Shown here one piece after another: positions 5,933 to 56,516 of a stretch of 64,000 bases of DNA. The notes under the pieces were generated by a model that did not search any database, was not told where the DNA came from, and saw only the letters and a list, made by a program, of their open reading frames with translations. A program made the translations under genes and the position numbers. Position 1 is the first letter of the stretch. The number at the start of each line of letters is the position of its first letter. This DNA comes from an uncultured Bacteroidales bacterium (GTDB lineage Bacteria > Bacteroidota > Bacteroidia > Bacteroidales > FEN-979): positions 17-64,016 of the forward strand of contig CAIQUS010000160.1 of the NCBI GenBank assembly GCA_903875045.1, in the 5' to 3' direction.

Positions 5933-5980
5933 TGGCCTTTATTATTATTAAAATTATAAAGAAACTATGAATAATCTTTG

Positions 5981-26974: not shown

Positions 26975-26975
26975 C

Positions 26976-37681: not shown

Positions 37682-37706
37682 AGTTGTACAGATTATTTTG
37701 GAGTAT

Positions 37707-37714
37707 CAAAGGTA
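37707..37714 (-). promoter_or_regulatory. Candidate -7 box TACCTTTG for rubrerythrin
   Basis: The plus-strand text caaaggta lies 26 nt upstream of the ATG at 37681. Confidence 0.35.
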
Positions 37715-37763
37715 CACCAAAAAATCGAGATTGGAAATTGGAAAATTCAAAACTGAAAACCTG

Positions 37764-37922
37764 CTATCGCATTTTTACATAATCGTCCTTTCCAACGCCA
37801 CAAATCGGGCATACCCAATCATCCGGGATATCTTCAAAGGCGGTTCCTGGTGCAATTCCCGAGTCGGGATCACCAATAGCAGGGTCATAAACATGACCGC
37901 AAACAGTGCATTTATATTTCAT
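37764..37922 (-). CDS. Rubredoxin, 52 aa (missed by the ORF track)
   Basis: Hand translation gives [52 protein letters not shown]. CxxCG and CPxCG motifs are present. It starts 6 nt after the gpx stop. Confidence 0.9.
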
Positions 37923-37927
37923 ACTTG

Positions 37928-38473
37928 TTATTTCTCAATCCAGTTGATAATTTTTTCATCGAAAGGTTTGTCGCCAGGGGCGGCAAAACCCACAACTTCG
38001 CCTTGTTCATTGATCATGAATTTCTGGAAGTTCCATTTTACCGGGGCATCCAAAATGCCATTCTGATCTTTCGATGTCAGCCAACTGTACAGCGGGTCTA
38101 TGTCTTTTCCTTTTACAGAGATTTTGGCCATCATTGGAAACGTGACCTGATACTTGCTTGTGCAGAATTCTTTGATTTCAGCATTTGTTCCTGGCTCCTG
38201 ACTTAAAAAATTGTTGGCCGGAAAACCTATGATCACAAAATTTTTGTCGCTGTATTTTTTATACAGTTCTTCGAGTTGCGCATATTGTGGAGTGTAACCG
38301 CATTTGGATGCCACATTGACCACCAAAACCTTCTTTCCTTTTAAGGTTGAAAAATCGAATGGCTGTTCATCAATGGTCGTAGCTTTAAAGTCGTAAATTG
38401 TTTTTTTATTTTGTGCACTGGTCATGGCCGTTATTGCGAGGAAGGTTAACATAAAAAGCAATGTTCTCATCAT
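37928..38473 (-). CDS. gpx: Glutathione peroxidase (Cys-type), secreted
   Basis: [28 protein letters not shown] and WNFQKF are GPx signature motifs. There is an N-terminal signal peptide, and the peroxidatic residue is Cys (TGC), not Sec. Confidence 0.9.
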
Positions 38474-38511
38474 AAATTGTTTGGTTTTAAATTGATTGTA
38501 TAAACTGGCTG

Positions 38512-38519
38512 CAAAGATA
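38512..38519 (-). promoter_or_regulatory. Candidate -7 box TATCTTTG for gpx-rubredoxin
   Basis: The plus-strand text caaagata lies 39 nt upstream of the ATG at 38473. Confidence 0.3.
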
Positions 38520-38644
38520 CAAAAATGCTGAGTTGTTTGGAAATGTTCTAAATAATAAATTTTGTAGAAAAATAATATTATTATTTACTTCGATTAAATT
38601 CTTATCTTTATAGTTTCAGTTTTTAGTGAAGCCAGGGTTTTATT

Positions 38645-39223
38645 ATGCGGCAGTTTTTTTTCTATTGTAGATCAGCATTAATTCTTGCGGGAGGATTTTT
38701 TTTTGCATGCAGCAATTCCGACTCACCTCCGGGCTTAAATCCGGGAATAAATAACAACAATATGTCAAACAAAATTGAAATTGGGAGCAAGGCCCCTGAT
38801 TTTTCATTGCCGGATCAACGTGGAAACAGGGTGAACCTGAGCGATTATCTTGGGAAATCGAACATGGTGATTTATTTTTATCCAAAAGATGAATCGTATG
38901 GCTGCACAAAGGAAGCGTGTAGTTTTAGGGATAATTATGAGGTTTTTAAGAAATCCGGCGCAGTGGTGATTGGAATATCTTCCGATGACATTGCCTCCCA
39001 TCAGGCATTTGCAGCAAATCATAAACTGCCATTCCTCCTTCTTTCCGACAAAGATAAAACGGTTGCCGAAAAATATGGCGTGGGTAAATCTCTGGGAATT
39101 TTACCTGGTCGTGTTACCTTTGTGATCGACAAAAAAGGCATTGTCAGGCTGATGTTTTCTTCTCAGCTCAATTTTGAAAAACATGTCAGCGAATCACTGG
39201 ATATATTGAAGAAAATTGAGTGA
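38645..39223 (+). CDS. bcp: Peroxiredoxin, Bcp/PrxQ type, with lipoprotein-like signal
   Basis: FYPKDESYGCTKEAC active-site context and AVVIGISSDD. The N-terminal hydrophobic segment ends in ...FFFACS. Confidence 0.85.
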   Translation: MRQFFFYCRSALILAGGFFFACSNSDSPPGLNPGINNNNMSNKIEIGSKAPDFSLPDQRGNRVNLSDYLGKSNMVIYFYPKDESYGCTKEACSFRDNYEVFKKSGAVVIGISSDDIASHQAFAANHKLPFLLLSDKDKTVAEKYGVGKSLGILPGRVTFVIDKKGIVRLMFSSQLNFEKHVSESLDILKKIE

Positions 39224-40890: not shown

Positions 40891-41685
40891 TTAATTTTGG
40901 TATAATTCTTTTGCTCCCCATTTTTCAAAGACCCCCAATCCAAATAGTGCAAAATCATATTTCACAGGGTCTTTGGGATCAAGCAGTCGTAAATTCGCAT
41001 CCAGTTCCAGTAATGCCCTGGCATCATTTTGCTTTCTTGTAAGCAGCCCCAGTATTCTTGCGACATTTCCGGAATGAACATCCAGGGGGCAGGAAAGTTT
41101 TGATGGTGAAATGGATGACCATAAACCAAAGTCCACGCCAGTATTGTCTTTTCGAATCATCCACCTTAAGAACATGTTGATTTTTTTAGCCGCTGACCCT
41201 TTAAATGGGTCTGAAATGTGTTTTACAGTTCTTTGGCAATGTGGTGTTTCGAAAAACACCTTATAAAGTTGGTGAATAGCTGGTTGTAGTGATTCATTGG
41301 TTTGATATAGATCAAATACACCTTCCAGCCCCTGCTTATGAATATATATGTGTTGTAACGCCTTGATAAAATGAATAAAATCAACTGAATTAAAAGTACG
41401 GTGCACAAAACCCGCCAATTTGTCCAGATGATAATCTTCATGATTCATGATGAAATCATAAGGAGAATCACTCATCATCTCCATCATACGATGTCCACTG
41501 GTCAGAATCATTTTTCGGTTACCCCAGGCAATAGAGGCAACAAGGAATCCCGCAACCTCAATATCTTCTTTTAAGGTATACCGATGCGGTAAGCTTATTG
41601 GGTCTGTTTCAATAAAGCCAATGGTATTGTATTGGATTACCTTTGCTTCCAGAAAATCTTTCAGCTCATCACCACTCAAATCCAC
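40891..41685 (-). CDS. TIGR02757/DUF2400-family protein (uncharacterised)
   Basis: 264 aa with a GTG start overlapping the OFOR gamma stop by 1 nt (TAGTG). The family assignment is from memory of the conserved N-terminus (ETDPISLPHRY) and the CPLDVH motif. Confidence 0.6.
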   Translation of the reverse strand: MDLSGDELKDFLEAKVIQYNTIGFIETDPISLPHRYTLKEDIEVAGFLVASIAWGNRKMILTSGHRMMEMMSDSPYDFIMNHEDYHLDKLAGFVHRTFNSVDFIHFIKALQHIYIHKQGLEGVFDLYQTNESLQPAIHQLYKVFFETPHCQRTVKHISDPFKGSAAKKINMFLRWMIRKDNTGVDFGLWSSISPSKLSCPLDVHSGNVARILGLLTRKQNDARALLELDANLRLLDPKDPVKYDFALFGLGVFEKWGAKELYQN

Positions 41686-42239
41686 TAATTTAATACATGC
41701 ACAGCTGTGAGCAAATCTTTCCCGATCTCAATGGCTTTTTCATTTTCCGGGATGAGCGTATGGTGGCGGGCAGGAAGCGATTTTTCCAATCCTTTGTGGA
41801 TGTATTCCGGGGCGACCAATGGCTTTAGCTTGAGGAAGCCTCCAAGTACGATCATGTTGAAAATTTTAGAAAGGCCCCTTTTCCCGGCTTCATCGGCTGC
41901 CTCAATCGAATAGATATTGATATCCTTTCGTTCGGGAAACCGTGTAAGGCCGTTAGGATCGTAAATGAGCAATCCGCCCGGTTTGACGGTTTTTTCAAAT
42001 TTATCCATCGATTGCTGGTTCAGAATGATGGCTGTATCGTAGGAGTTCAGGATTGGGGAACTGATGCGTTCATCACTGATGATCACTGTAACATTGGCGG
42101 TTCCGCCCCGCATTTCAGGGCCATACGATGGCATCCAGCTGACCTCTTTATTTTGCATCACTCCGGAATAGGCCAGAATCTTACCCATGGAGAGGACACC
42201 CTGTCCGCCAAAACCTGCAATTATGATTTCTTCTGTCAT
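41685..42239 (-). CDS. 2-oxoacid:ferredoxin oxidoreductase gamma subunit
   Basis: 184 aa with IIIAGFGGQGVLSMG and GPEMRGG, typical of POR/VOR/KOR gamma. Confidence 0.85.
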   Translation of the reverse strand: MTEEIIIAGFGGQGVLSMGKILAYSGVMQNKEVSWMPSYGPEMRGGTANVTVIISDERISSPILNSYDTAIILNQQSMDKFEKTVKPGGLLIYDPNGLTRFPERKDINIYSIEAADEAGKRGLSKIFNMIVLGGFLKLKPLVAPEYIHKGLEKSLPARHHTLIPENEKAIEIGKDLLTAVHVLN

Positions 42240-42241
42240 AT

Positions 42242-42290
42242 AATTTGAATAACGAATATTGAAAAAGGAATTTTGAAGGTTGAAGGGATT
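42242..42290. repeat. Degenerate 7-nt periodic tract (ANNNNGA x7) in the beta-gamma intercistronic spacer
   Basis: aatttga ataacga atattga aaaagga attttga aggttga agggatt. This is weaker than the other arrays. Confidence 0.45.
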
Positions 42291-43103
42291 TTATTCTTTA
42301 ACAGGTGCTTCTTTTTTTTCGATAAGTTTTCCGTCTACCTTAATATCTCCAAGCTCATAGAACGGGAACATATTCTCTTCCATCCACTTATTGGATTGGA
42401 CTGGCGTCATTTTCCAGCCTGAATTGCAATTGGAAACGATTTCAATAAAGCACAATCCTTTGTTTTCCTTTTGAAGTTCAAAGGCCTTTCTGAGGGCTTT
42501 TTTTGTTTTCCGAACATGGCTTGGCGTATGAACTGCCTGGCGGGTAACATAATATACCCCCGGAAGATGTGAGATCAGTTCTGTGATTTTCAGCGGGTGA
42601 CCCATTGTAGGTACATCGCGGCCATACGGAGAGGTGGAGGAACGCATTCCGGGAAGGGTTGTGGGGGCCATCTGGCCACCGGTCATCCCGTAAATGCCAT
42701 TGTTGATAAAGATAATGGTGATATTTTCGCCACGGTTACAGGCATGAATTGTTTCAGCCGTACCAATGGCAGCGAGGTCACCATCGCCCTGGTATGTAAA
42801 CACGAAATGGTTTGGCCACATCCTTTTGATAGCTGTTGCCAGCGCAGGTGCGCGTCCGTGAGCAGCGCCGATCATATCGATATCGAGAAAATCGTATGCC
42901 AGTACAGAACAGCCAACCGGTGAAACACCGATGGTTTTATCCTGTATGTCCATTTCCTCGATGACTTCCATCAACATGCGGTGTGCTGTACCATGACCGC
43001 AGCCAGGACAGTAACTAAGGGGCCGGTCGACAAGCAGGTCGGTCCTTTTATAGACGATATTTTCCGGTTTTCGTATTTCGGTTTTTGCGAATTGTTCTTC
43101 CAT
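42291..43103 (-). CDS. 2-oxoacid:ferredoxin oxidoreductase beta subunit (TPP-binding)
   Basis: YCPGCGHGTAH, GCSVLAY and the TPP motif GDGDLAAIGTAE. Confidence 0.85.
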   Translation of the reverse strand: MEEQFAKTEIRKPENIVYKRTDLLVDRPLSYCPGCGHGTAHRMLMEVIEEMDIQDKTIGVSPVGCSVLAYDFLDIDMIGAAHGRAPALATAIKRMWPNHFVFTYQGDGDLAAIGTAETIHACNRGENITIIFINNGIYGMTGGQMAPTTLPGMRSSTSPYGRDVPTMGHPLKITELISHLPGVYYVTRQAVHTPSHVRKTKKALRKAFELQKENKGLCFIEIVSNCNSGWKMTPVQSNKWMEENMFPFYELGDIKVDGKLIEKKEAPVKE

Positions 43104-43105
43104 GA

Positions 43106-44188
43106 TTAACCTCCGATAATATTTTGTTCAAGGGCCCTCACAACTTCATCCGGTGATGGGATGATGCCGCCAAACCGGCCGAAATGTTCAATTTTAACTT
43201 TGCAGCCTACCGAAAGTTTAACATCTTCGATCATCTGGCCTGCATTCATTTCAACTACTAAAATTCCCTTTACGCGGTTTCCGACATTTGAAACCTGCAT
43301 GGCAGGGAAGGGGAAGAGGGTAATCGGGCGGAAAAGCCCGACTTTGATTCCTTTGGCACGTGCAAGGTCGGTGGCTTTCTGGCAAATCCGTGCAGAAAGT
43401 CCGAAAGCGACAAAAAGGTAATCAGCATCTTCACACTGGATTTCCTCATAAAGCACTTCGTTTTGCTCCATCACCTTATATTTAGCCTGGAGTTTCAGGT
43501 TCACACGTTCTTGTCCGGCCGGATCAAGGTCGAGGGAGGTAATAATGTTATGTGTACGGGTTTTTGGCCGGCCGTTGGAGGCCCATGGACATTGTTTAAC
43601 GACCTCGTCATCTGAACGACGGGGAATATGGTCGAACAATACCACCTTTTCCATCATCTGACCAATGGCACCATCAGAGAGGATCATGACAGGAGTGCGG
43701 TATTCAAAGGCTTTATCAAAACCAAGTTTGACATGGTCGCACATCTCCTGAACGGAAGCGGGTGCGAGCACCAGCATCTTATAATCGCCATGACCACCGC
43801 CTTTTACTGCCTGAAAGTAGTCGGCCTGAGATGGTTGAATAGTCCCCAATCCAGGGCCGCCACGTACAATGTTGACGATTAAAGCCGGCAGTTCGGCGCC
43901 AGCCATGTAACTTATGCCTTCCTGCATGAGGCTGATCCCGGGGCTGGAAGATGAGGTCATTACCATTTTTCCGGTGCCGGCACCTCCATAAATCATATTT
44001 ACGGCAGCAACTTCACTTTCAGCCTGAAGAACTACCATGCCAGTCCGCTCGAATGGCTTTTCGGCCATCAGGTATTCCATTACTTCAGACTGTGGTGTGA
44101 TCGGGTATCCGAAATATCCATCGCAGCCCGCACGGATGGCGGCTTCCGCCACAGCTTCGTTGCCCTTCATTAATCTAAGTTCACCCAT
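43106..44188 (-). CDS. 2-oxoacid:ferredoxin oxidoreductase alpha subunit
   Basis: Start placed at MGELRLMKGNEAVAEAAIRAGC (M37 of the ORF). GYPITPQSE and QAESEVAAVNM motifs are present. Confidence 0.85.
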   Translation of the reverse strand: MGELRLMKGNEAVAEAAIRAGCDGYFGYPITPQSEVMEYLMAEKPFERTGMVVLQAESEVAAVNMIYGGAGTGKMVMTSSSSPGISLMQEGISYMAGAELPALIVNIVRGGPGLGTIQPSQADYFQAVKGGGHGDYKMLVLAPASVQEMCDHVKLGFDKAFEYRTPVMILSDGAIGQMMEKVVLFDHIPRRSDDEVVKQCPWASNGRPKTRTHNIITSLDLDPAGQERVNLKLQAKYKVMEQNEVLYEEIQCEDADYLFVAFGLSARICQKATDLARAKGIKVGLFRPITLFPFPAMQVSNVGNRVKGILVVEMNAGQMIEDVKLSVGCKVKIEHFGRFGGIIPSPDEVVRALEQNIIGG

Positions 44189-44210
44189 TTGAGTATCTTT
44201 TTTTTGATTT

Positions 44211-44441
44211 TTATTCAGTTGCAACTTTAGCCCGGTATACGGTGATAACCCCATCGGGGCATACAAGAGCGCAGTTGGTACAGCCCGTACAATCATCGTT
44301 CACTTTCATGGCGAAACGATATCCTTTGCTGTTCACTTCCTTCGACATCGCGATCACCGTGAACGGGCAGGCAGCAAGACATACTTCACAGCCTTTGCAG
44401 CGTTCGGTGTTGATCAGGATATCACCTTTAATTTTTGCCAT
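44211..44441 (-). CDS. 2-oxoacid:ferredoxin oxidoreductase delta subunit (2x[4Fe-4S] ferredoxin)
   Basis: 76 aa with CKGCEVCLAACP and CTGCTNCALVCP. Confidence 0.85.
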   Translation of the reverse strand: MAKIKGDILINTERCKGCEVCLAACPFTVIAMSKEVNSKGYRFAMKVNDDCTGCTNCALVCPDGVITVYRAKVATE

Positions 44442-44561: not shown

Positions 44562-45878
44562 TTAGTGGTTTTCTTTGAACCTCCTCAACCGTTCTTCCAA
44601 TACAGGAAACTGTTCTCTTTTTACAAGAGAAACACAAGCCCGGATTCCTTCCGTGCGTTCGCTGCCAGTGATGCTGAGTGCAATGGCACTGATCCCATAA
44701 TACATCAGTTCCTGGAGCAGATCTTCTCCTGAAAAACCAGGATAGGCAAAAGTGAAATAGAAACCATCGGCAATAGGTTCGTCCTCGTCTTTGTCATAGA
44801 CGAAAATGAAGCCATTGTCGCTGAATATTTTTTTCATGATTTTTGCCTTGGCACCATATTCCTTGACCACCTCAACAAAGTCAAAAGTGCCATCATTTGC
44901 GGCTTTCAGCATGGCAGCAAGGGCATATTGCGTTGAATGGGCAGTGCCGGCACTCAATGCGTAAACTGTTCCGTATATCAGTGCCCTGCCAACAAGATCG
45001 GTGGAGTAATACCTGAGCAGGTCGGGTGCCTGGAGGTTAAAAAGTTTATTGGATAAAATCATAAGCCCGATGCGCTGACCTGCATAGCTGAAGGCCTTCG
45101 AACTTGAAATAAGCAATAAGAAATTATCGGTGTATTTTGCAACAGTAGGCTGGTAGGGAGGCTGACCAGGCTTCGAATAATCCTTCCGGAAATCCATGGC
45201 AATATATGCCAGGTCCTCGATAATGATCACATCATATTTGTTGGCAAGTTCGCCTATGATCCTGAGTTCTTTGTCAGTAAAACATATCCACGAGGGATTG
45301 TTCGGGTTGGAATACAGAACTGAATGAATATTCCCTTTGGAAAAATAGCTTTCGAGTTTATCTCGGAGTTTGTCACCACGGTAATTGTACACATCGAAGG
45401 TGTCAAATTTCTGCCCAAGTACTCTGTGCTGCTGGTGATGTACCGGAAATCCCGGGTCGATAAATAAGGTGGTATCTTTTTCACGATGGATTTTAGAAAA
45501 AGTAAGAAATGCTGCAAATCCTCCCTGCATGCTGCCTACCGTGGGAATACAATTTGCAGCGTCAACTTCAATGTCGAGGAAAAGTTTGACAAATCGTGCG
45601 GCCTCCTTTTTCAGAACAGGGGTTCCTTCGATTTCCGGATAAACAGCCGCTACACCCCTTTGCAGCGCTTCGATTTCGGCTTGTACTCCGATGGAAGTTG
45701 CCGGAAGCCCCGGAATCCCCATTTCCATGCGGATGAATTTTTCTCCTGTTTCCGTCTCAATTCCATTGATCAAACGTTTTATTTCACGGATAGTTGCTTT
45801 GCCAATGTTCCTGATTTTGCTTTCCAGGATATGTCGTTGTACAACTTCGTAGCTGATTGGGGTGTCTTTCATGAGCAA
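44562..45878 (-). CDS. Class I/II pyridoxal-phosphate-dependent aminotransferase
   Basis: 438 aa with NPNNPS and the PLP-lysine motif SSSKAFSYAGQRIG. Confidence 0.85.
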   Translation of the reverse strand: MLMKDTPISYEVVQRHILESKIRNIGKATIREIKRLINGIETETGEKFIRMEMGIPGLPATSIGVQAEIEALQRGVAAVYPEIEGTPVLKKEAARFVKLFLDIEVDAANCIPTVGSMQGGFAAFLTFSKIHREKDTTLFIDPGFPVHHQQHRVLGQKFDTFDVYNYRGDKLRDKLESYFSKGNIHSVLYSNPNNPSWICFTDKELRIIGELANKYDVIIIEDLAYIAMDFRKDYSKPGQPPYQPTVAKYTDNFLLLISSSKAFSYAGQRIGLMILSNKLFNLQAPDLLRYYSTDLVGRALIYGTVYALSAGTAHSTQYALAAMLKAANDGTFDFVEVVKEYGAKAKIMKKIFSDNGFIFVYDKDEDEPIADGFYFTFAYPGFSGEDLLQELMYYGISAIALSITGSERTEGIRACVSLVKREQFPVLEERLRRFKENH

Positions 45879-46009: not shown

Positions 46010-48286
46010 TTACCGCACTAAAAACAGATTGCCTGTTAACGTCGAATTCTCAGGAGGTGCAAGTGATGATTGGTAAACAATTATGTAAACATAGGTGCCT
46101 TCAGGGCAGGGCCTGCCCTTATAAGTTCCATCCCACCCTGTTCCGGCGCGATGGGAGGTGAACAGCAACTCACCGTTGCGGCTGTATATATTCATACTGA
46201 ATTCCCTGATATTATTCGATACCGGCCGGAAAATATCATTCAATCCATTGCCATCAGGTGTGAAAGCACTGGGTACCCAGATCACGATTTCGCATGCCCT
46301 GCCGGTTTTAACAAACACCAGTGAACTGTCGGAATTTTTACAGCCATGAATATCTGTATAGCGATATACGATTAAATGACTCCCCGGTCCCCTGGCAACA
46401 GGATCGAAATTTTCCTGAACAGAGCCATTGATGCTGTATTCACCTCCTTGCGGAGTTCCTCCGTTTAACTGGAATGCAGGCTCGTTGAAACAAACAGAAT
46501 CAAACCCTGCAAAGCTCACCTGCGGAGCAGGAAAGAAGTTGACAGGTAATACAGATGCCGACCCTTCGCCACAATACTGATTATAGCCTGAAACAGACAG
46601 GGTTCCGGAAGTTGCCGCGGAGGCATAACTGACATTGGCAACCGTGTCGTGGCTATTGATGGTAGCTCCGGTTCCGGAATAGGTCCAGTTGAAAGTGGTT
46701 GAATTGGGTTCACTCCTGGTTGTGTAAGTCCTTGAAATACCTCCCGCGCAAAAAGAGGGGTCGCCAATGATCATTGCGGGCTTGGCAGGCGAACGTTTGA
46801 TAATAAAATCAACTGGAGAGGCTGTTGAACTGGCAACATACCACCATGAATTTATGGTATTGGTGTCGCCATCAGAAATGTCCCAAAGGTGGCAACCCTG
46901 GATATCTTTGCATCCGTTGAAGTTGGAGGTACCGTAAGGCAAAAGGCTGTCATCCCAATAAATATCCGGCTTTGGCCCGGGAGGGCGTATTACTTCCACT
47001 TTGTAACCGTAATCATTGTATTCAATGTCGTAAATGGGCAAATGGGTTATGCCATGGATAAACCTGATGATTGCACTTGCAGGGGCACCGTTTGGAAGGG
47101 GTTGTCCTAGTCCGTCGATCCCATTCCAGTGAATGATGTTATAGCCATTACCACCGGGATTAGCGAGTACATTGGCCGTGATTTTCACATCCCGCGGGTC
47201 GGCCCCGGGGGTGGGGTCAACTTCGATCAGTACTTCTATAATTCCGTCTTGTGTTACCTGAATACCCAGGTCGACTGAGCCTGATGCGCAATTGTTTGTT
47301 GCCGTTATAGGCAGGTTTATGCCGGGTTTTGCTTTTCCGGTCGGGAAAATGACACTGTCAGGGTCAGATAAAAATATTTTGTATTGAGGATAGGTGTGAA
47401 AACCTGTACTTGATTGCCTGTCGAGGGCAATGTTTCCCGTATTGAAGCAACCTGTTTTATTGCTTGAGATGGAAAATGTTCCTCCGACAAACCCGTTACA
47501 ATTGATGCTGGTTACAATACTGTCGTCTGAAAGGATGAACATTGTTCCATAAAACCGGTTGGAGGTTGGCGGAGCCTGAACCATTCCACAATTAAACTGC
47601 CAGGCTTTCGACCAAACCCGCCCGGGGATCGGCTCGTTCGCACTATTTACGACGGTTATGTCAAAATAATCAAAGGTGACATAGCTTGCATAAGTATAAA
47701 AGCTACCCTGGTCGGGGGGATAAAAAAATTCAAGGGAGTAATTGCCGGGCATGGAAGGGGTGTGCAGTTTTGGACTATATCCCCCGGAAGAAGGAAAAGG
47801 CCCGGCAACGGCCTGAGTATATGACTGAATGAATCCTGCCCCGGATGTGGGTACAGGACTCGGATTGATGACGATGTTACCGGCCGGATCTCTTAACTGG
47901 TAGGTTACAACAGCAAGAGAATCAATCATGGTAATTTTGCCCAATCCGAAATAGAACTTTTCTGTGAGATCGGCAATATAAATATTGATCCTGAATTCGG
48001 GCGCTGCATTGAAAAAGCCGAAATCATTCCGTGATTTATCAATACACAGGGTGCCTTTTCTTCCGGCAAATGGAACAATCTGCCTGGTGCCTTCCGAATA
48101 GCAAACAAAGGGCAGTACAATCAGGAATAGGATGTGAAACAAAAAATTAAAACGGGGTTTCACTCCCGGTATAGCATGTGATTCCCATGGATTCGAACTG
48201 GTGAGCGATTTTATTAAGTTCATCTTTTTCAGGAATTTTAAAATCGGTCGTGTAATATTTTTTGCCAAGAAGACTGTATTTCTCAC
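46010..48286 (-). CDS. Large secreted protein with T9SS type-B (CHU_C / gliding-motility) C-terminal sorting domain
   Basis: The C-terminal PSAFTPDGNGLNDIF...NIYSRNGELLF...GWDGTY.G...EGTYVYII matches the type-B domain. The start is uncertain: the ORF overlaps the activase gene, and MNLIKS (48223) or GTG (48163) before the signal-like FLFHILFLIVLPFVCYS are alternatives. Confidence 0.75.
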   Translation of the reverse strand: MRNTVFLAKNITRPILKFLKKMNLIKSLTSSNPWESHAIPGVKPRFNFLFHILFLIVLPFVCYSEGTRQIVPFAGRKGTLCIDKSRNDFGFFNAAPEFRINIYIADLTEKFYFGLGKITMIDSLAVVTYQLRDPAGNIVINPSPVPTSGAGFIQSYTQAVAGPFPSSGGYSPKLHTPSMPGNYSLEFFYPPDQGSFYTYASYVTFDYFDITVVNSANEPIPGRVWSKAWQFNCGMVQAPPTSNRFYGTMFILSDDSIVTSINCNGFVGGTFSISSNKTGCFNTGNIALDRQSSTGFHTYPQYKIFLSDPDSVIFPTGKAKPGINLPITATNNCASGSVDLGIQVTQDGIIEVLIEVDPTPGADPRDVKITANVLANPGGNGYNIIHWNGIDGLGQPLPNGAPASAIIRFIHGITHLPIYDIEYNDYGYKVEVIRPPGPKPDIYWDDSLLPYGTSNFNGCKDIQGCHLWDISDGDTNTINSWWYVASSTASPVDFIIKRSPAKPAMIIGDPSFCAGGISRTYTTRSEPNSTTFNWTYSGTGATINSHDTVANVSYASAATSGTLSVSGYNQYCGEGSASVLPVNFFPAPQVSFAGFDSVCFNEPAFQLNGGTPQGGEYSINGSVQENFDPVARGPGSHLIVYRYTDIHGCKNSDSSLVFVKTGRACEIVIWVPSAFTPDGNGLNDIFRPVSNNIREFSMNIYSRNGELLFTSHRAGTGWDGTYKGRPCPEGTYVYIIVYQSSLAPPENSTLTGNLFLVR

Positions 48287-49142
48287 GGCCCAGATGATGC
48301 AGAGGGAGGATGTTTATCTCATGGCGTCCGGTCGACAGAATAAACCGGGCGGTTGAACGGATATTTTCAGCATCATCATTAAACCCGGGAACAACCGGCA
48401 ATCTGAAGATTATGCGGCCCGGAAATTCATTGGCGAGGCGACGGGCGTTTTCGAGGATACGCGCGACAGGTGAATGGGCAACAGTGTGGTCAGGCGGAAT
48501 AGTGGATAAACAGATTGGTGAACCTGCGATTTTGTGACTACCTGACGCATTCATTATTTTTAAATCATAGAATATCCAGTCGATGTATGGCAATGATTTT
48601 TCATAATTTTCCCATGGAACATTGCCACATGTTTCAACTGCAGTATGGATATATGCACCATAGCAGCGTTTTAAAAGATGATGAGCAAATTCAGGTTGAG
48701 TAAAGGGTTCGCCACCGGTGAGTGTTATGCCACCGCCTTCACCCCAGTATTGGCGGTCGCGATTGACTGTGGTATACAAGTCTTCAACCGAAAGTTCATA
48801 ACCTCCGCGGTTTAGCGCCCCCGAACAACAGGATTTTACACAATCGAGGGTTCTGCAAGTCGCACAAATTTTCCGATCGAAAGTCAATAGGGGGTGATCA
48901 TCCATCTTTGAAATTGAAATGGCTGAAAATGGACAAGCGTCCACACAAAGTCCATCGAAGGTGCATTTGGATTCCCGGTATAAAGGTTCGGGGAAAAAGG
49001 AAATTCCTTCCGGATTGGAACACCAGGCACATTCAAGGGAACAGCCTTTGAAAAATATCAAAGTCCTGCAACCAGGGCCATCATGCACGGAGAATCCCTG
49101 GATGTCGAAAATATATCCCTTGATTATTTTTGGTTGTACCAT
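48147..49142 (-). CDS. hpdA: Glycyl-radical enzyme activase (radical SAM, with extra ferredoxin-like Fe-S domain)
   Basis: GFSVHDGPGCRTLIFFKGCSLECAWCSNPE (CxxxCxxC), an inserted CTFDGLCVDACP and CATCRTLDCVKSCC clusters, and GGEPF. Confidence 0.85.
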   Translation of the reverse strand: MVQPKIIKGYIFDIQGFSVHDGPGCRTLIFFKGCSLECAWCSNPEGISFFPEPLYRESKCTFDGLCVDACPFSAISISKMDDHPLLTFDRKICATCRTLDCVKSCCSGALNRGGYELSVEDLYTTVNRDRQYWGEGGGITLTGGEPFTQPEFAHHLLKRCYGAYIHTAVETCGNVPWENYEKSLPYIDWIFYDLKIMNASGSHKIAGSPICLSTIPPDHTVAHSPVARILENARRLANEFPGRIIFRLPVVPGFNDDAENIRSTARFILSTGRHEINILPLHHLGREKYSLLGKKYYTTDFKIPEKDELNKIAHQFESMGITCYTGSETPF

Positions 49143-49390
49143 TGAAAATCAGCACATTTAGCAGCGATCAGGTCGGGATAGGCCAGTGTGTTCCCCATAC
49201 ATTTGCCAAGAAAATCCTTTTCAGGGGTGTAGTTTGAGCAAAATTTGCATTTCGCGATTTTTTCAACCTTTGCGCATAACGGATCATCGGGACCGATTCG
49301 TTCTTTACTCAGTTTACACATCCCGCTGAAAACATCCACCGGCAGATAATATTTACAATCTTTACATGATAGTCCATCCATAATTGACAT
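49124..49390 (-). CDS. hpdC: Eight-cysteine small (gamma) subunit of an HPAD-type glycyl-radical decarboxylase
   Basis: 88 aa from the first ATG (the ORF-track start at 49399 is TTG). It has two copies of CxxC-x12-C-x13/14-C, sits between the GRE and the activase, and overlaps the activase start by 19 nt. Confidence 0.7.
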   Translation of the reverse strand: MSIMDGLSCKDCKYYLPVDVFSGMCKLSKERIGPDDPLCAKVEKIAKCKFCSNYTPEKDFLGKCMGNTLAYPDLIAAKCADFQWYNQK

Positions 49391-49455
49391 ATATTTCAAC
49401 TTTTTTCAATACCGCATCAATTTTGCGGAAGTCCGGTTTTCAGTATTCAATTCTT

Positions 49456-52125
49456 CTAAACCTCCTCATATTCAGTTCTGGATATTACCTCATCCTGAAT
49501 CTGTTTCCCGAGTTCCACCCAGTATTGTGTAAACCCGGCAACACGTACAAGCAAGCTCCTGAATTTATCCGGTTCCGCCTGAGCCTGTTTGAGCATGCGT
49601 GAGTCGACGATGTTGAATTGGACATGAAAACCGCCTTTACGCAGATAAGCACGGATAAGTTCCAGAAATTTCCGTGACCCTTCACGGCCTTTAACCACCG
49701 AAGGATGAATCTTCATATTGAGCTGTGAATTTTGTGACTGGGCATGATTCCAGCAGGTTGCTGAGTTGAAAAGGGCATAGGGCCCGTTTTTATCAGTTCC
49801 GGGATAGGCTGAAACAGAGCCGTCAGAGAATGTTGTGCCACTCAAACGCCCGTCGGGACTGGCCAGGGTTACAGCCCCCATGGGACCATGGGTGGAAACA
49901 GATATCTGACAGGCGTACATTGGCTGATCGTAAAGTGAGCGGTAGTTGTGCGCCATGTCACAAAACCAATCTTCCCACTCTTTCAGAATGTTATCCACAA
50001 AGGGATTGTCATTGCCAAATTTCGGAGCATCAAGGCTTTGCCTGTGGATTTTTTTCCAATTAGGATAATCATCAGTTGGAACCTGATCGATCAGTGAATA
50101 GGAACCGGTTTCCTGTGCTGTTTTATAACCGAAGTTTGCCAGGATTGCAGAACGGTACTCGTGCAGGGTATAGTTATTATCTGTAAAGACATTCTTTTTC
50201 AAGGAACCCAGAGAATTCACGAGATTGGTAGTACCACAACTTTCGATGTTAAATGTTGTGTTGTAGCGACAGCCCATCTGCCCGATGTCCTTGCCTTTTG
50301 CCAGACAATCGGGTTTCAGCATTGAATTTATAAGTGATGGTGAAATCTTTCGCCAGGCATCATGTTGAATGTTGTTTGTAAGTGTAAGCACATGACAAGC
50401 CCGGCTGAAATAATCTTTAAAACCTTGCCAGAGTTCATCATACGTTTCCAGTTTGAATCCATGAGAAGGGAAAATCCGCTGACCAGTGCGCATGTCCATG
50501 CCATCGAACAACACAACTTCAAGCAATTTCGGGAGGTTCAGAAAATGTACCCCAACACTGGTTGCCGGAGCCGAACCGCCCGGTATCCAATGAATTTCAT
50601 TGTCGAGTTCAAGCGGCATCCAACTGCCGGGTGATGTTTCAAGGCAACCACCGATGGCCCATGCCCTGGCCTCCTCCAGGTTCATACCTTCATGTGCATA
50701 GTTTCCAAGTAAAAATTCCATGGCCACCTGATTGTTAACCCAGGCTGGATAACCGGTACCTATTTTGGTGCACTCCACACCCTTGAGCAGGAACTCTTCC
50801 GGGAGTTTTTCATCATACAAAAGCGATAGGGTAGGTTGGGGGGTGTCGCATGTGATCCCGGCCTCAAGGATAAGCATTTCGAGCTCGTTGGCTGCTGACG
50901 TACCGTCCTTGAGCAAGCCGCCAAGGCAGAGGTTGTTAAATGTATTGCCCGAAAGTACGCCTCCCACAACACCCATCGAGGCAAAACAATCAATCTCGGT
51001 GAATTTGATGCGCATGCACTCAAGCAGTTCAAGACTTTTTTCGCGATCGATCACACCATTTTTCATGTCACGTTGCCAGAATGGATAGAGTACCTGTCCG
51101 ACGCGGCCTGGCGACAATCCAGATATGGCATCTTCGTTCAACACGGCAACATGAAAGAGCCAAAGCATCTGCAATGCATCATGAAATGAACGGGGTGGTT
51201 TGGAGGAGATCCAATGCAGCCTTTCGGCCATCTCAAGGTATTCGGTTTTTTGCTGAGGTTCTTTTTCAATGGAGGCGAGTAAAAGTGCTTCATCTGCGTA
51301 ATTAATGATCCACGCTTTGATACCTTCCAGCATCAGAATGACGGCCTTGTAAAAATAGAGCCTGTCCATATCAGGATAACCGGCCACATCTGCAATGCCA
51401 TCTTCGCAATTTTGAATAATCCCGTCGATGCCGAATTGCAGCGGGTAATAATAGTTCATGACCTCACGTCCCTGGGGAAGGGTATACCCGGAGTCGAACA
51501 TGCAGATAACCGAGCGCATCAGTGCCTCTTTTTCCTTGTACCCGGGTACGAGTTGTTCATATTTATGGCCAACATCATCAACCGATTTGTCTTTCCATTT
51601 TTTTGCTACTTCAAGCATGGCAGGCATTTCCTCAACCCGAAGTCCGAATTTTCCAGCAATGGAAAGTACCTTCCCTACACTTTTTGTAACATTTCCTCCA
51701 CCTTTGCCCATGGTGGTAAAGGTATCGGCAGTAAGTTTTCCTGATTCCTGGGCTTCCTGGTACAGTTTGTTTTCGGCAGCCATGAAAAACGCTTCAGACA
51801 GCCATGGCATCGGAAAGGATCCGCGGAGGTAACTGGATTTACCCATACACAAAAGTTCCCCGGGATAAATTACCGGGGTCAGGTGTTGAAAACCAGCTTT
51901 TAACGCCTCGGCACGGCGAATAATCGGGATTTCGCCCTCCATCTCCTCCCATCGGCGGGTGTACCAATAGGGGAATTCCATTGAAACCGAAGATTTGGTT
52001 TCAAAATATAGTTCACGGGCTGAATTTGCCCTGGGAGTTGGCTGCCGTTTCCCTTCACGGGAGGCGACCTGTGCCCCCGGCTCGCCGCCGTAATAATTTA
52101 TTTGATTTTGCGCATCGGTAAGCAT
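49456..52125 (-). CDS. hpdB: Glycyl-radical enzyme large subunit, 4-hydroxyphenylacetate decarboxylase type
   Basis: C-terminal glycyl-radical motif LVRVAGFTQY and thiyl loop AIGGCLETSPG. The first ATG is at 52125 (the ORF-track start at 52146 is TTG). Key residues are colinear with HPAD (see findings). Confidence 0.85.
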   Translation of the reverse strand: MLTDAQNQINYYGGEPGAQVASREGKRQPTPRANSARELYFETKSSVSMEFPYWYTRRWEEMEGEIPIIRRAEALKAGFQHLTPVIYPGELLCMGKSSYLRGSFPMPWLSEAFFMAAENKLYQEAQESGKLTADTFTTMGKGGGNVTKSVGKVLSIAGKFGLRVEEMPAMLEVAKKWKDKSVDDVGHKYEQLVPGYKEKEALMRSVICMFDSGYTLPQGREVMNYYYPLQFGIDGIIQNCEDGIADVAGYPDMDRLYFYKAVILMLEGIKAWIINYADEALLLASIEKEPQQKTEYLEMAERLHWISSKPPRSFHDALQMLWLFHVAVLNEDAISGLSPGRVGQVLYPFWQRDMKNGVIDREKSLELLECMRIKFTEIDCFASMGVVGGVLSGNTFNNLCLGGLLKDGTSAANELEMLILEAGITCDTPQPTLSLLYDEKLPEEFLLKGVECTKIGTGYPAWVNNQVAMEFLLGNYAHEGMNLEEARAWAIGGCLETSPGSWMPLELDNEIHWIPGGSAPATSVGVHFLNLPKLLEVVLFDGMDMRTGQRIFPSHGFKLETYDELWQGFKDYFSRACHVLTLTNNIQHDAWRKISPSLINSMLKPDCLAKGKDIGQMGCRYNTTFNIESCGTTNLVNSLGSLKKNVFTDNNYTLHEYRSAILANFGYKTAQETGSYSLIDQVPTDDYPNWKKIHRQSLDAPKFGNDNPFVDNILKEWEDWFCDMAHNYRSLYDQPMYACQISVSTHGPMGAVTLASPDGRLSGTTFSDGSVSAYPGTDKNGPYALFNSATCWNHAQSQNSQLNMKIHPSVVKGREGSRKFLELIRAYLRKGGFHVQFNIVDSRMLKQAQAEPDKFRSLLVRVAGFTQYWVELGKQIQDEVISRTEYEEV

Positions 52126-52159
52126 GGTATGTTCATTTTGGATCAACAGATTTTGAATC

Positions 52160-52167
52160 CAAAGTTA
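52160..52167 (-). promoter_or_regulatory. Candidate -7 box TAACTTTG for hpdBCA
   Basis: The plus-strand text caaagtta lies 34 nt upstream of the ATG at 52125. This would give the operon its own promoter downstream of the membrane-protein gene. Confidence 0.35.
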
Positions 52168-52227: not shown

Positions 52228-52941
52228 TCAGAGTCGTTTCATTTCCATCAGGCTTGCCAAAGAAAGCAACACCCCAAGAATCACGCTGTAAAAAGCAGCG
52301 ACGAGGATGCGGGAGCCTTCAGGAAGCATAAAATTAAGGGTTTGGGCAGGGATCCAGAAAACAGGGATGGTAATTTTTATAACAAAGTTCCAGAAAGTGA
52401 GCCAGTCACCTTCTTTAATGTATTGGCCCACGGGTATCGGGGTGAAAAAACCTTTTAAAGTTCCGCCGGTATTCATAATGTGCATATCCGTGATACGATG
52501 AAATCCCATGAATACAGGTGCGAAAAAAAAATTCAGGGTAGCACTCACACTAAAGGCAGAAAGCAGTTTTAACCAGCTGAACCCGGACTGTCGTAAAATA
52601 TCAGCCGGATGGGCTGTGGGAAAATTTAATCCCAAAGATTTCAACATCAGCGGTGCCCCTTCCCCGAAAATCACGAAGGCAACTTTAATGGTAATACCCA
52701 GAAAACCCCAAACGAGGGCACGGGGGAGTAATCCAAACCCTTTTTTATTGTAGTACCCGGTTCTCAGCCGTAATCCCAGGCATTCGCCAAATGTAGCCAG
52801 GATTGCGAACTTGATAAAGCTTAGTAAATATGCATGCTCTGAATTCAATTCCAGGTAAGCTCTGTATACTGGCGGAAAAATAAAAAAAGGGAGCAGGAAC
52901 ATAAGGATCACCCCCAAAACTATAATGTCACTTTTTTTCAT
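52228..52941 (-). CDS. Uncharacterised polytopic membrane protein (about 6 TM)
   Basis: 237 aa, hydrophobic throughout (IIVLGVILMFLLPFFIF, FAILATFGECLGL, ALVWGFLGITIKVAFVIF, LLSAFSVSATLNFFFAPVFMGF, ITIPVFWIPAQTLNFML, VAAFYSVILGVLLSLASL). No family recognised. Confidence 0.55.
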   Translation of the reverse strand: MKKSDIIVLGVILMFLLPFFIFPPVYRAYLELNSEHAYLLSFIKFAILATFGECLGLRLRTGYYNKKGFGLLPRALVWGFLGITIKVAFVIFGEGAPLMLKSLGLNFPTAHPADILRQSGFSWLKLLSAFSVSATLNFFFAPVFMGFHRITDMHIMNTGGTLKGFFTPIPVGQYIKEGDWLTFWNFVIKITIPVFWIPAQTLNFMLPEGSRILVAAFYSVILGVLLSLASLMEMKRL

Positions 52942-53700: not shown

Positions 53701-55089
53701 ATGGCAAGGTCAAGCAGGCAGTCAATTTTTGTTCAATTACGAGAACAGTTTCCATTTTTTATCTTTGAAAAACAGGAGTATACGCTGACTGCCCGTGGCC
53801 TCGATATCAGGTTCACTTTTAACCTTGCTGATCAGTACCAATTTCACCCGACGCTTTTTATACCAAGGAAATCCTGTTTCCTTGCCGATGAAAAAATTGC
53901 AGATCATCTCGACTGCATCGTCTTCAACCTGGGGATGATCGAACTGATCAGTTATTGGAAGGCGACTTGTTCCCCAAAGATTATCATCCGGCCTTTTATC
54001 CTGAATGCCGAACAGTTGATATGGTGGAAAAAGCTCTATTTCCATGGATTGGGCGAATTTTTTTATCTGAATGGACTTGATGTAACAGCAGACAGTTTTA
54101 TGCAACTGGAGGTTGTCTCAACAAATCAATTGGTTGAGAAAAAAATGTTCCTTGAAAATTCCGTGATTATTCCGGTTGGCGGTGGCAAGGATTCAGCGGT
54201 GACCCTTGAATTGCTCGGATCGCTGCCAGACAGCATTCCCTTGATCATGAATCCAAGGGACGCCAGTCTGGAAACAATTGTTGCAAAGGGTTTTAAATCT
54301 GATCAGTTCATCGAAATCAAACGCACTATTGATCCTGTATTGCTGAAATTGAATGAGCTTGGTTTTTTAAACGGACATACGCCTTTTTCTGCCATGCTCG
54401 CTTTTGTCACGGTGCTTTCTGCCATCGTGACAGGTCGCAGGCATATCGCCCTTTCGAATGAGTCAAGCGCGAATGAGGCTACCATCGGGGGTACCCAAAT
54501 TAATCATCAATATTCAAAGTCGTTTCAATTTGAATCGGATTTTCGTAAATATGTGAACCGATGGATCAGTAAAGATATTAACTATTTTAGTTTTCTCCGC
54601 CCGCTGAATGAGTTGCAGATCGCCTGCCTGTTTTCCGGATTTCCTCGTTATCATGCAGCATTTAAAAGCTGTAATGCAGGAAGTAAAACCGACTCCTGGT
54701 GCGGTGTTTGTGCAAAATGTCTTTTTACGTACATTATTTTATCCCCTTTTCTGAAAGAAGGTCAGCTTAAGATGATTTTTGGAAAAAATCTGCTTGCAGA
54801 AGAATCCTTGAAAAATATTTTCGATCAGCTTACGGGGTTGGCCGATGAAAAACCTTTTGATTGCGTGGGAACCATCCGGGAGGTAAACCTGGCGCTTTGT
54901 AAAACGATCAGGCAGTTGGACTCAAATGAACTTCCTTGTCTGTTAGAATATTATAAGAATTCCCAAGCTTATTCCACCTATAACAGGATTGATTTTTCCT
55001 TCGAATTGGCACATATATCGACTGAACATTACCTCCTACCTGTATTTATGAAAATATTGGATGAAAGGGTTAAACACAACTTATGGTAA
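53701..55089 (+). CDS. PP-loop-like ATP-utilising protein, candidate MurL (UDP-MurNAc-L-Ala-L-Glu epimerase)
   Basis: 462 aa with an internal IIPVGGGKDSAVT (SGGxDS-like PP-loop), NGHTPFS, and the C-terminal Cys pair WCGVCAKC. It overlaps the MurD-like gene by 7 nt. The MurL assignment is an inference from gene pairing. Confidence 0.5.
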   Translation: MARSSRQSIFVQLREQFPFFIFEKQEYTLTARGLDIRFTFNLADQYQFHPTLFIPRKSCFLADEKIADHLDCIVFNLGMIELISYWKATCSPKIIIRPFILNAEQLIWWKKLYFHGLGEFFYLNGLDVTADSFMQLEVVSTNQLVEKKMFLENSVIIPVGGGKDSAVTLELLGSLPDSIPLIMNPRDASLETIVAKGFKSDQFIEIKRTIDPVLLKLNELGFLNGHTPFSAMLAFVTVLSAIVTGRRHIALSNESSANEATIGGTQINHQYSKSFQFESDFRKYVNRWISKDINYFSFLRPLNELQIACLFSGFPRYHAAFKSCNAGSKTDSWCGVCAKCLFTYIILSPFLKEGQLKMIFGKNLLAEESLKNIFDQLTGLADEKPFDCVGTIREVNLALCKTIRQLDSNELPCLLEYYKNSQAYSTYNRIDFSFELAHISTEHYLLPVFMKILDERVKHNLW

Positions 55090-56516
55090 ATCTGATTCGT
55101 GAACGGTTCACAAATAAATCGATTGTAATTCTCGGATTTGGAAGGGAAGGGCAATCGACCTATCTGCTTTTGCGAAAAATTTTCCCGGACAAACAACTTG
55201 CCATTGCCGATATGAGCGATGGTGTTCATGAAAACCCATTGATTCAGCACGATGATTGTTTGCACTTCATCACGGGAGCAGGGTATCTCAACCATCTGGT
55301 TAAGTATGACGTGATTTTTCGGTCCCCGGGAATTCCGATCTGGCAACTGATTGGTCCGGATGATGAATCAGCTTCTTCAGAAACCAAACAAGCTGCCGAT
55401 TTCCACATTCCCAGGAAAAAGATTACCTCGCAAACCGAAATTTTTCTGGAATGCTATTCAAAACAAGTGATTGGCGTCACCGGAACAAAAGGTAAAAGCA
55501 CCACCTCAAGTTTGATTCACCATATTTTTAAAACTGCCGGGAAAGATGTACTTCTGGCCGGAAACATCGGTAATCCTGTATTTCATTTCATTGACCTCAT
55601 TACCACGTCTACTTCGATTGTTTTTGAGCTTTCGTCACATCAGCTTGAATTACTGAAAATCGCTCCGCATATTTCTGTTCTGCTTAATCTTTACGAAGAA
55701 CATCTGGATGCCTACGAAAGTTATGATACCTATCAGCAGGCCAAAATAAATATCACAAAATATCAGCAACCTGGTGATTTCCTTGTTTTTAATTCTGATG
55801 ATCATCTGGTTGATAAGCTTGTGAAACCATTTTTGGGTCTTCGTAAACCCTTTCCATTTTCAGTCCAGGATCAGCCTCAACCTGGTGGATTTATAGATGA
55901 TGGGGCTATTTGTTTTGCAGATGAAAACCGGGTTGTTCCGGTATGGAAAATTCACCAGGACCGTTTCCTCCGCGGGGAGCATAACCTGAAAAATATTCTT
56001 GCCGCTGTGAATGTTTGCATGATTTGTGGCATTGAACCTGAAATGATCGAAGATGGTATCGCCACTTTTAAGGGGTTGGAACACAGGTTGGAGTATGTGG
56101 GCGAATTTGGCAATATTCACTTCTATAATGATTCGATTGCCACAATTCCCGAAGCCTGTATGGAGGCAATAAAGGCCATCCCTAACGTAGATACGCTTAT
56201 TGCCGGAGGCTTTGACCGTGGTATCAATTATGAAGGGTTGGCTGAATTTCTTTGCAGGTCGTCTGTAAGGAATTTCATTCTTCTGGGAGCCGCCGGGAAA
56301 AGGATCATGGAGCATCTGACTTTGATTAATCATGCGGAAAAAAAAATATTTCATATAAACCGTTTCGACGATTTTAAAACCATTGCGCTGCGGGAAACCC
56401 GTGCCGGTTATGCTTGTCTTCTATCACCTGCTGCAGCCAGCTATGATGAATTTAAAAATTTTGAAGAACGGGGAAAGAGGTTTAGGGAACTGGTAAAAAG
56501 CGAAAAAGCGAAATAG
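55083..56516 (+). CDS. murD: MurD-family UDP-N-acetylmuramoyl-L-alanine--glutamate ligase (possible L-Glu-specific MurD2)
   Basis: N-terminal Rossmann VILGFGREGQS, P-loop GVTGTKGKSTT, LNLYEEHLD and a C-terminal Mur ligase domain. It is not flanked by mraY/ftsW. Confidence 0.8.
   Translation: MVNLIRERFTNKSIVILGFGREGQSTYLLLRKIFPDKQLAIADMSDGVHENPLIQHDDCLHFITGAGYLNHLVKYDVIFRSPGIPIWQLIGPDDESASSETKQAADFHIPRKKITSQTEIFLECYSKQVIGVTGTKGKSTTSSLIHHIFKTAGKDVLLAGNIGNPVFHFIDLITTSTSIVFELSSHQLELLKIAPHISVLLNLYEEHLDAYESYDTYQQAKINITKYQQPGDFLVFNSDDHLVDKLVKPFLGLRKPFPFSVQDQPQPGGFIDDGAICFADENRVVPVWKIHQDRFLRGEHNLKNILAAVNVCMICGIEPEMIEDGIATFKGLEHRLEYVGEFGNIHFYNDSIATIPEACMEAIKAIPNVDTLIAGGFDRGINYEGLAEFLCRSSVRNFILLGAAGKRIMEHLTLINHAEKKIFHINRFDDFKTIALRETRAGYACLLSPAAASYDEFKNFEERGKRFRELVKSEKAK

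Follow-up and report, generated by a model that had tools for sequence, protein, structure and literature searches.

The 64,000-nucleotide stretch of DNA analysed here, which we call the window, comes from an uncultured Bacteroidales bacterium (GenBank assembly GCA_903875045.1, contig CAIQUS010000160.1) and carries on its minus strand an hpdBCA operon that very probably codes for a functional 4-hydroxyphenylacetate decarboxylase (HPAD), the glycyl-radical enzyme that converts 4-hydroxyphenylacetate into p-cresol. The three genes are intact and follow one another in the order large subunit, small subunit, and activase, at the positions that a preliminary description of this DNA had reported. 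They are listed here together with the putative promoter element and the codons of the predicted active site. Residues of the large subunit HpdB are numbered as in the translations of the open reading frame (ORF) track, and their counterparts as in CsdB, the large subunit of the Clostridium scatologenes enzyme.

49456..52125, minus strand: hpdB, HPAD large (catalytic, glycyl-radical) subunit, 889 amino acids, ATG at 52125
49124..49390, minus strand: hpdC, HPAD small (gamma) subunit, 88 amino acids according to public records (49124..49399 and 91 amino acids in the ORF track)
48147..49142, minus strand: hpdA, radical S-adenosylmethionine glycyl-radical activating enzyme, 331 amino acids, ATG start
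52160..52167, minus strand: TAACTTTG, Bacteroidota-type -7 promoter-like element, 35 nucleotides upstream of the hpdB ATG
51121..51123, minus strand: Ser codon TCT, S342, equivalent to CsdB Ser344
50638..50646, minus strand: Cys-Leu-Glu codons of the thiyl loop GGCLE, with C501 (TGC, 50644-50646) and E503 (GAA, 50638-50640) equivalent to CsdB Cys503 and Glu505
50545..50547, minus strand: His codon CAT, predicted partner of the substrate phenol, H534, equivalent to CsdB His536
50242..50244, minus strand: Glu codon GAA, predicted to deprotonate the phenol and to define HPAD specificity, E635, equivalent to CsdB Glu637
49534..49536, minus strand: codon GGG of the radical glycine in the RVAGF motif, G871, equivalent to CsdB Gly873

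In the ORF track, hpdB extends over 49456..52146 and encodes 896 amino acids from a TTG codon. Translation almost certainly begins at the ATG at 52125, judging from the homologues, most of which have 889 residues and begin at Met8 of the window ORF, and from the 889-residue protein that is found letter for letter in NCBI, JGI/IMG, and ENA, where it is labelled “4-hydroxyphenylacetate decarboxylase large subunit”. The constant offset of two residues from CsdB noted in the preliminary description therefore holds in ORF-track numbering, but the biological offset is nine, because the real protein begins at this ATG. The hpdC start is probably either 49390 or the ATG at 49381, which would give 85 residues and fits the homologues equally well, and the 5' end of hpdA overlaps the last 19 nucleotides of hpdC. 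Of 58 related loci, 49 have the motif TAnnTTTG, which we take from Bacteroides promoter studies to be the Bacteroidota -7 promoter consensus, no more than 100 nucleotides upstream of hpdB, against about 5% expected from the frequency of the motif in the window. A scan for sigma-70-type promoters and terminators gave no enrichment over shuffled sequences, and an Rfam scan found no RNA element near hpdBCA. Purifying selection on the operon is strong: against six relatives, the ratio of nonsynonymous to synonymous substitution rates (dN/dS) lies at 0.02-0.04 for hpdB and in the range 0.08-0.18 for the other two genes, hpdC and hpdA, in comparisons where dS is close to saturation.

In a sequence search of the PDB, HpdB matched chain A of 2Y8N/2YAJ, the C. 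scatologenes HPAD large subunit, at 1025 bits over query residues 43-894, with choline TMA-lyase as the second-best glycyl-radical enzyme (GRE) at 331 bits, and the arylacetate decarboxylase AAD (7E7L) at 272 bits. The protein passes the NCBIfam equivalog model of the HPAD large subunit, NF033715, with 1453.2 bits (cut-off 1150), fails the model of indoleacetate decarboxylase (IAD), NF033718, with 733.8 bits (cut-off 1100), matches both the PFL-like and Gly_radical families of Pfam, and aligns along its whole length with CsdB residues 40-896 at 52% identity in a BLOSUM62 alignment. Both radical motifs are present, with LVRVAGFTQYW at the glycyl radical and WAIGGCLETSP at the thiyl loop.

The published active-site list of CsdB comprises Arg223, Ser344, Gly345, Phe405, Cys503, Glu505, Gly532, His536, and Glu637 (PMC4979209), and mechanistic roles have been described for Cys503, Glu505, and Glu637 (PMC13450708, PMC9248008, PMC4979209; for Glu637 also PMC6181972). 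Eight of these nine residues are identical in HpdB, the exception being Gly532, which is replaced by Ser. In ORF numbering, CsdB Ser344, Gly345, Leu400, Phe405, Cys503, Glu505, His536, Glu637, and Gly873 correspond to identical residues two positions lower, and CsdB Arg223 aligns with Arg227; all of them are kept in the window and in 120 homologues. The pairs that the preliminary description had drawn up, S342, C501, E503, H534, E635, and G871 with CsdB S344, C503, E505, H536, E637, and G873, align as it had proposed, and the CsdB numbering it had used agrees with the literature (PMC4979209, PMC13450708).

The small subunit passes its model NF033716 with 60.9 bits (cut-off 50), also matches PF18671, and aligns with chain B of 2Y8N (E = 3.8e-4). 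HpdC has eight Cys, in two CX2C...C...C sets, that do not vary in 34 related loci and 27 homologues from databases. Seven of these Cys align with Cys6, 19, 36, 45, 48, 62, and 80 of the C. scatologenes small subunit CsdC, and the eighth with CsdC His3. In CsdC, one cluster is bound at a four-Cys site and the other at a site with three Cys and one His (PMC13450708); the CsdC N-terminus reads MRHYDC, and His3 would be the ligand by elimination, because it is the only histidine within CsdC residues 1-84. Clostridial small subunits keep this His-x2-Cys arrangement, including that of Clostridium sp. HMP27 (His7), whereas HpdC of the window has Cys, and the Cys-x2-Cys of the window recurs in an Ignavibacteria-labelled relative. 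The N-terminal site in this environmental clade is thus predicted to be all-Cys, a modest variant that we count as one of three minor new observations made here. CsdC has in addition Cys14, Cys52, and Cys75, which do not occur in HpdC of the window. The activase HpdA carries a CX3CX2C motif (Cys34/38/41) and a ferredoxin-like insert with seven invariant Cys, and it passes TIGR02494, the model of the glycyl-radical activase subfamily, with 284 bits against a cut-off of 174.

The placement within the family was examined by an exhaustive search of 50%-identity representatives, which yielded four informative clusters: P0243, the HPAD of Clostridium sp. HMP27, with 1725 bits on NF033715; P0245 and P0246, both unnamed, 44% and 42% identical to HpdB of the window and under the HPAD as well as the IAD cut-off; and P0247, the IAD cluster, which reaches 1188 bits with the IAD model. 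In a neighbour-joining tree without bootstrap, computed on 839 columns from the window clade, CsdB, and these clusters, the window clade, P0243, and CsdB stand together, with P0245, P0246, and then IAD outside. The residue pair at positions 536/637 follows the same division, being His/Glu only in the HPAD group, Thr/Asn in P0245, Ala/Trp in P0246, and Ala/Leu in IAD. The earlier assignment to the true HPAD branch is therefore borne out by the two HPAD models passed, the IAD model failed, and the presence of His536 and Glu637, and its proposed GRE phylogeny gives a group of the window protein with CsdB and the Clostridium HPAD that excludes IAD and the two sister clusters.

Among the nearest known systems, C. 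scatologenes CsdBC (2Y8N/2YAJ) with CsdA has the same order of large subunit, small subunit, and activase and matching motifs, shares Arg223, Ser344, Gly345, Leu400, Phe405, His536, and Glu637, and has two small-subunit cluster motifs that align with those of HpdC; the window differs from it by Ser/Val at positions 532/533, by Cys at the position of His3, and by a variable insertion in the activase. C. difficile HpdBCA and the HPAD of Clostridium sp. HMP27 (WP_035308979) belong to the same equivalog family as the window enzyme, the latter being 62% identical to HpdB and having the same Ser/Val pair; in the HMP27 locus (L047:7002-8273), an MFS transporter gene lies between hpdC and hpdA, and none is associated with the Bacteroidales operon. 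IAD, the phenylacetate decarboxylase PhdB, and AAD are likewise glycyl-radical arylacetate decarboxylases with a Cys-x-Glu thiyl loop, but, unlike the window enzyme, they have no small subunit (for IAD and AAD, see PMC6181972 and PMC13450708) and no equivalents of Glu637 and His536, in whose places the IAD representative has Leu and Ala. The broader statement that only HPAD needs an iron-sulfur (Fe-S) small subunit has to be narrowed to the decarboxylases, given that the small subunits of benzylsuccinate synthase (BSS) and methylalkylsuccinate synthase (MASS) are also Fe-S proteins (PMC13450708). These are HiPIP-like accessories to a GRE, as HpdC is, and MasC matches HpdC weakly (E = 0.24), although BSS and MASS catalyse fumarate addition with other catalytic subunits.

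The sister clusters P0246 (L131:4001-7962) and P0245 (L130:4001-7604), which have no His536/Glu637 pair, are of some interest in themselves. The P0246 locus has its own 80-residue, Cys-rich, gamma-like small ORF and an activase, and from these sequences P0246 may be a small-subunit-dependent decarboxylase of a non-phenolic substrate.

We consider it very probable that hpdBCA of the window makes a functional HPAD and turns 4-hydroxyphenylacetate into p-cresol. Following the enzymes of C. scatologenes and C. difficile, from which the mechanism is taken by homology, HpdA with S-adenosylmethionine and a [4Fe-4S] cluster would abstract hydrogen from the RVAGF glycine of HpdB, and the resulting glycyl radical would turn the Cys of GGCLE into a thiyl radical. 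The substrate would be bound with its carboxylate at this Cys, the conserved Glu and His would form hydrogen bonds with its phenol, CO2 would be released by a Kolbe-type, proton-coupled one-electron oxidation, and quenching of the benzylic radical would give p-cresol. The small HpdC, with two [4Fe-4S] clusters, would be required for the active complex, its N-terminal cluster being held here by four Cys ligands in place of three Cys and one His. The operon would be expressed from its own Bacteroidota-type promoter element and would behave as a fixed-site cassette, inherited vertically in the clade and lost in some relatives.

Several points weigh against this assignment and have to be set beside it. 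For this clade it is made by homology; the identity to the characterised enzyme is only 52%, and in the reference enzyme itself the roles of the catalytic residues are given without a mutagenesis test (PMC13450708). The Ser/Val pair of HpdB at CsdB Gly532/Thr533 is invariant in the 120 closest homologues, and HpdC shows the His-to-Cys ligand change described above. The best equivalog of HpdA, the HPAD activase model NF033717, scores 301.7 bits, under its cut-off of 420, in part because of a poorly conserved insertion of 20-27 residues at about residues 203-230 (window 48450-48540, minus strand), which occurs only in the sub-clade of the window and is still longer in locus L011. The AlphaFold2 models, whose input alignments held only homologues of at least 51% (small subunit) or at least 73% identity (large subunit), are of low confidence, with predicted local distance difference test (pLDDT) values of 51 for HpdC and 54 for HpdB, and permitted no superposition. 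As for Gly532 to Ser, we considered it as a Bacteroidota-specific specificity switch and rejected this idea; the Ser/Val pair is not specific to Bacteroidota, because the HPAD of Clostridium sp. HMP27 shares it.

On both sides of the operon lie the following genes.

52228..52941, minus strand: membrane protein, 237 amino acids, distantly related to Mpv17/PMP22, a backbone neighbour and not part of the system
46010..48142, minus strand: type IX secretion system (T9SS) type-B cargo protein with PKD and CHU_C domains, starting 4 nucleotides after hpdA and present only in a sub-clade
44562-45878, minus strand: class I/II aminotransferase, a backbone neighbour
41685-44441, minus strand: four-subunit VOR-like 2-oxoacid:ferredoxin oxidoreductase (OFOR) in delta-alpha-beta-gamma order, a backbone neighbour

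The multi-pass membrane protein gave no Pfam or PDB match; it has 1969 homologues, in Bacteroidota, and adjoins AlgH and the aminotransferase-OFOR array in the conserved backbone. As a dedicated transporter or tolerance factor, and so as a component of the system, it was rejected, since it gave no such match, holds the same backbone position in relatives that lack hpdBCA, and has an unrelated protein at the corresponding place in an Ignavibacteria-type locus. The T9SS cargo gene appears in the ORF track with 758 amino acids and a GTG start at 48286, overlapping the 3' end of hpdA (48147-48286), an overlap that is an artefact of the ORF listing because public gene calls give 710 amino acids and a start at about 48142.

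The aminotransferase and the OFOR, which in most hpdBCA loci follow closely behind hpdA in the same orientation, could form with the operon one tyrosine-to-p-cresol cluster, analogous to HpdDEFG in C. scatologenes. There, the HPAD cluster includes HpdDEFG, a 4-hydroxyphenylpyruvate:ferredoxin oxidoreductase that is likewise four-subunit and VOR-like, together with HpdJ and HpdK (PMC13285125), and the OFOR alpha subunit of the window passes the VorB subfamily model. We nevertheless hold such a cluster to be unlikely. In an aminotransferase-anchored scan of metagenomes, hpdBCA lay upstream in 26 loci and was missing from 30, the latter often with the same AlgH and membrane-protein neighbours and one of them a deletion derivative, and two loci (L029 and L032) have hpdBCA without the aminotransferase-OFOR array nearby. 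The adjacency is thus background synteny, because the array persists in 30 related loci without the operon, and for the same reason we rejected it as evidence for a linked module from tyrosine to 4-hydroxyphenylacetate. Moreover, no phosphotransacylase/kinase (Pta-/Ack-type) or ADP-forming ligase gene was found in the window, the closest solved relative of the aminotransferase is an uncharacterised structural-genomics protein, and most HPADs are situated away from tyrosine-fermentation genes (PMC13285125). The combination of HpdBCA, HpdDEFG, and HpdJK that marks a C. scatologenes-type cluster is not found in the window; in contrast with C. scatologenes, this Gram-negative Bacteroidales host has no demonstrable link between its HPAD and a pathway cluster of that type.

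A different physiological substrate is a separate matter. An enzyme of the HPAD family might act in lakes and peat on another para-hydroxylated arylacetate, such as 3,4-dihydroxyphenylacetate or a homologue that stems from plants or lignin, and then its main product would be another methylphenol. The C. difficile enzyme also accepts 3,4-dihydroxyphenylacetate, the relatives of the window come from lake hypolimnia, fens, and peat and not from guts, and the Ser/Val pair beside the substrate pocket is found in all 120 homologues, all of which would fit such a substrate. On the other hand, all substrate-contact residues of CsdB except Gly532 are identical, the same Ser/Val pair occurs in the HMP27 HPAD with its high score on the HPAD model, and 4-hydroxyphenylacetate arises generally when tyrosine is broken down anaerobically, so that we judge this alternative quite improbable and continue to favour 4-hydroxyphenylacetate as the substrate and p-cresol as the product.

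With regard to the host, T9SS sorting domains of type A or B occur in several proteins encoded among the ordinary chromosomal genes of the window, and these domains, together with relatives among Bacteroidales metagenome-assembled genomes (MAGs), support the Bacteroidota host of the preliminary description. A scan of GTDB species representatives gave at least 44 hpdBCA loci at 73-94% identity, nearly all of them in MAGs labelled Bacteroidales, Prolixibacteraceae, or “Draconibacterium”, which originate from fens, peat, stratified lakes, and a sulfidic cave. The host would be an anaerobic, Prolixibacteraceae-like member of the Bacteroidales living in stratified-lake or peat-type habitats, and the wide distribution of the operon in lake and peat Bacteroidales is the second of the minor new observations. 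The view that HPAD is unusual in Bacteroidota does not hold: at least 44 species-level genomes carry the operon, and public databases already name these proteins, including the exact one of the window. In the literature, the HPAD of Tannerella forsythia (UniProt A0A1D3UC78), an oral pathogen of the Bacteroidota, is treated as a known enzyme and included in an alignment (PMC6181972), and a supplementary tree of 2026 places candidate HPADs in Bacteroidetes, Chloroflexi, Proteobacteria, and Lentisphaerae (PMC13285125 Fig. S13).

In about 40 species-level genomes, the operon is found at one and the same place in the chromosome, within the shared order MurD2-MurL / AlgH-(membrane protein)-hpdB-hpdC-hpdA-(T9SS cargo)-aminotransferase-OFOR delta-alpha-beta-gamma-DUF2400. 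The identity of hpdB follows that of MurD2 (Spearman 0.94) and of MurL (0.88), and with a GC content of 0.476 and 0.493 at third codon positions (GC3), hpdB falls inside the range of its neighbours, as the comparison suggested in the preliminary description now shows. Synteny, co-divergence with MurD2 and MurL, and unremarkable GC together argue for long vertical descent and against a recent transfer. The horizontal transfer that had been thought probable is, as a recent event in which a Bacteroidota genome otherwise free of HPAD gained the operon from Firmicutes, in our opinion highly improbable, as the promoter element is of Bacteroidota type and conserved and the nearest Firmicutes sequences are only 52-62% identical to HpdB of the window. 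In its favour stand the patchiness of the family, with homologues at 73-75% identity labelled Ignavibacteria, Cloacimonadales, Armatimonadetes, and Victivallales, and the more distant relatives in which the membrane-protein gene lies directly beside the aminotransferase-OFOR array with no hpdBCA between them, an arrangement compatible with an old insertion; the Ignavibacteria, Cloacimonadales, and Armatimonadetes labels are compatible with an older exchange between phyla.

The operon is also absent from some close relatives. Three loci (L050, L056, and L057) have an identical backbone, including the T9SS gene, and no hpdBCA. L050:4562-4760 (metagenome contig Ga0118677_10000909) still has the region upstream of hpdB, followed by about 22 hpdB-like codons, with the ATG at 4650, that run on in frame into the T9SS cargo gene. 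This fusion is a deletion scar and marks a secondary loss of the operon. Overall, hpdBCA is a cassette at a fixed site, probably inserted in ancient times and since then lost repeatedly, and this cassette-like presence and absence, with a deletion scar in one relative, is the remaining minor new observation.

Finally, that the operon codes for another arylacetate decarboxylase, be it IAD, phenylacetate decarboxylase, or the small-subunit-independent AAD, can be practically dismissed: the GRE fold is common to all of them and the IAD model and AAD (7E7L) do give 734 and 272 bits, but the IAD score stays under 1100, the IAD representative has Ala/Leu where His536/Glu637 are kept here, and the small subunit missing from IAD and AAD is present and conserved.

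p-Cresol is a toxic, malodorous phenol and a precursor of a uraemic toxin. Papers on its formation usually ascribe this ability to Clostridia and to a small number of other Firmicutes and Actinobacteria of the gut (PMC10746243, PMC5682003), and work centred on the gut continues to present hpdBCA as belonging to Firmicutes. In addition, p-cresol is reported to damage Gram-negative membranes (PMC6135563), for which reason a Gram-negative lineage that keeps hpdBCA has some ecological interest. The window, the 44 genomes, and dozens of metagenome contigs point to a well-conserved, evidently functional HPAD operon that is stable in an environmental Bacteroidales lineage, which should be of use in interpreting hpdB counts from metagenomes and in work on phenolics and their ecology in peat and anoxic freshwater, besides adding a naturally occurring His-to-Cys variant of the gamma subunit, which is poorly understood. 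There is no new chemistry here and no new kind of system; it is an uncharacterised member of a known family that is already correctly named.

A further-reaching idea, which we advance tentatively and with some, though low, probability, is that a large clade of uncultured, free-living, Gram-negative anaerobes, namely Bacteroidales/Prolixibacteraceae and Ignavibacteria-type relatives, is a major unrecognised source of p-cresol or of related methylphenols in anoxic lakes and peat, by means of an HPAD variant with an all-Cys N-terminal cluster in its gamma subunit. If this were true, the all-Cys cluster could shift the redox potential or the regulatory behaviour of the subunit, and the presence and absence at a fixed locus, with the deletion scar, would mark an ecologically selected, dispensable trait in a type of cell for which a particular sensitivity to p-cresol is reported.

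Some other features of the window may be recorded. At 53701-56516 on the plus strand, a MurL-like UDP-MurNAc-L-Ala-L-Glu epimerase gene, whose product scores under its equivalog cut-off, precedes a Mur ligase gene, and this pair stands next to AlgH in all related loci; the MurD2/MurL route was first described in Xanthomonadales. At 10649-12257 (plus strand), a DUF6088 gene and an AbiEii nucleotidyltransferase gene form an AbiE-type pair (type IV toxin-antitoxin or abortive-infection module) in the stretch of lowest GC of the window (0.35-0.39). At 147-179 (plus strand), the Rfam RNA motif DUF805b was found with 40.4 bits (gathering score 35.6), just upstream of a 746-residue ORF (200-2440) without a Pfam match. 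The window also contains 2-oxoglutarate dehydrogenase E1 and E2 with a flavoprotein, two ferredoxin-dependent 2-oxoacid oxidoreductases, and a rubrerythrin, glutathione peroxidase, and AhpC cluster, located as follows.

3089-8776 (minus strand), 25937-28826 (minus strand), and 37103-39223: loci of the 2-oxoglutarate dehydrogenase, oxidoreductase, and rubrerythrin gene sets

These gene sets suggest an oxygen-tolerant or micro-oxic lifestyle of the host despite its oxygen-sensitive glycyl-radical enzyme.

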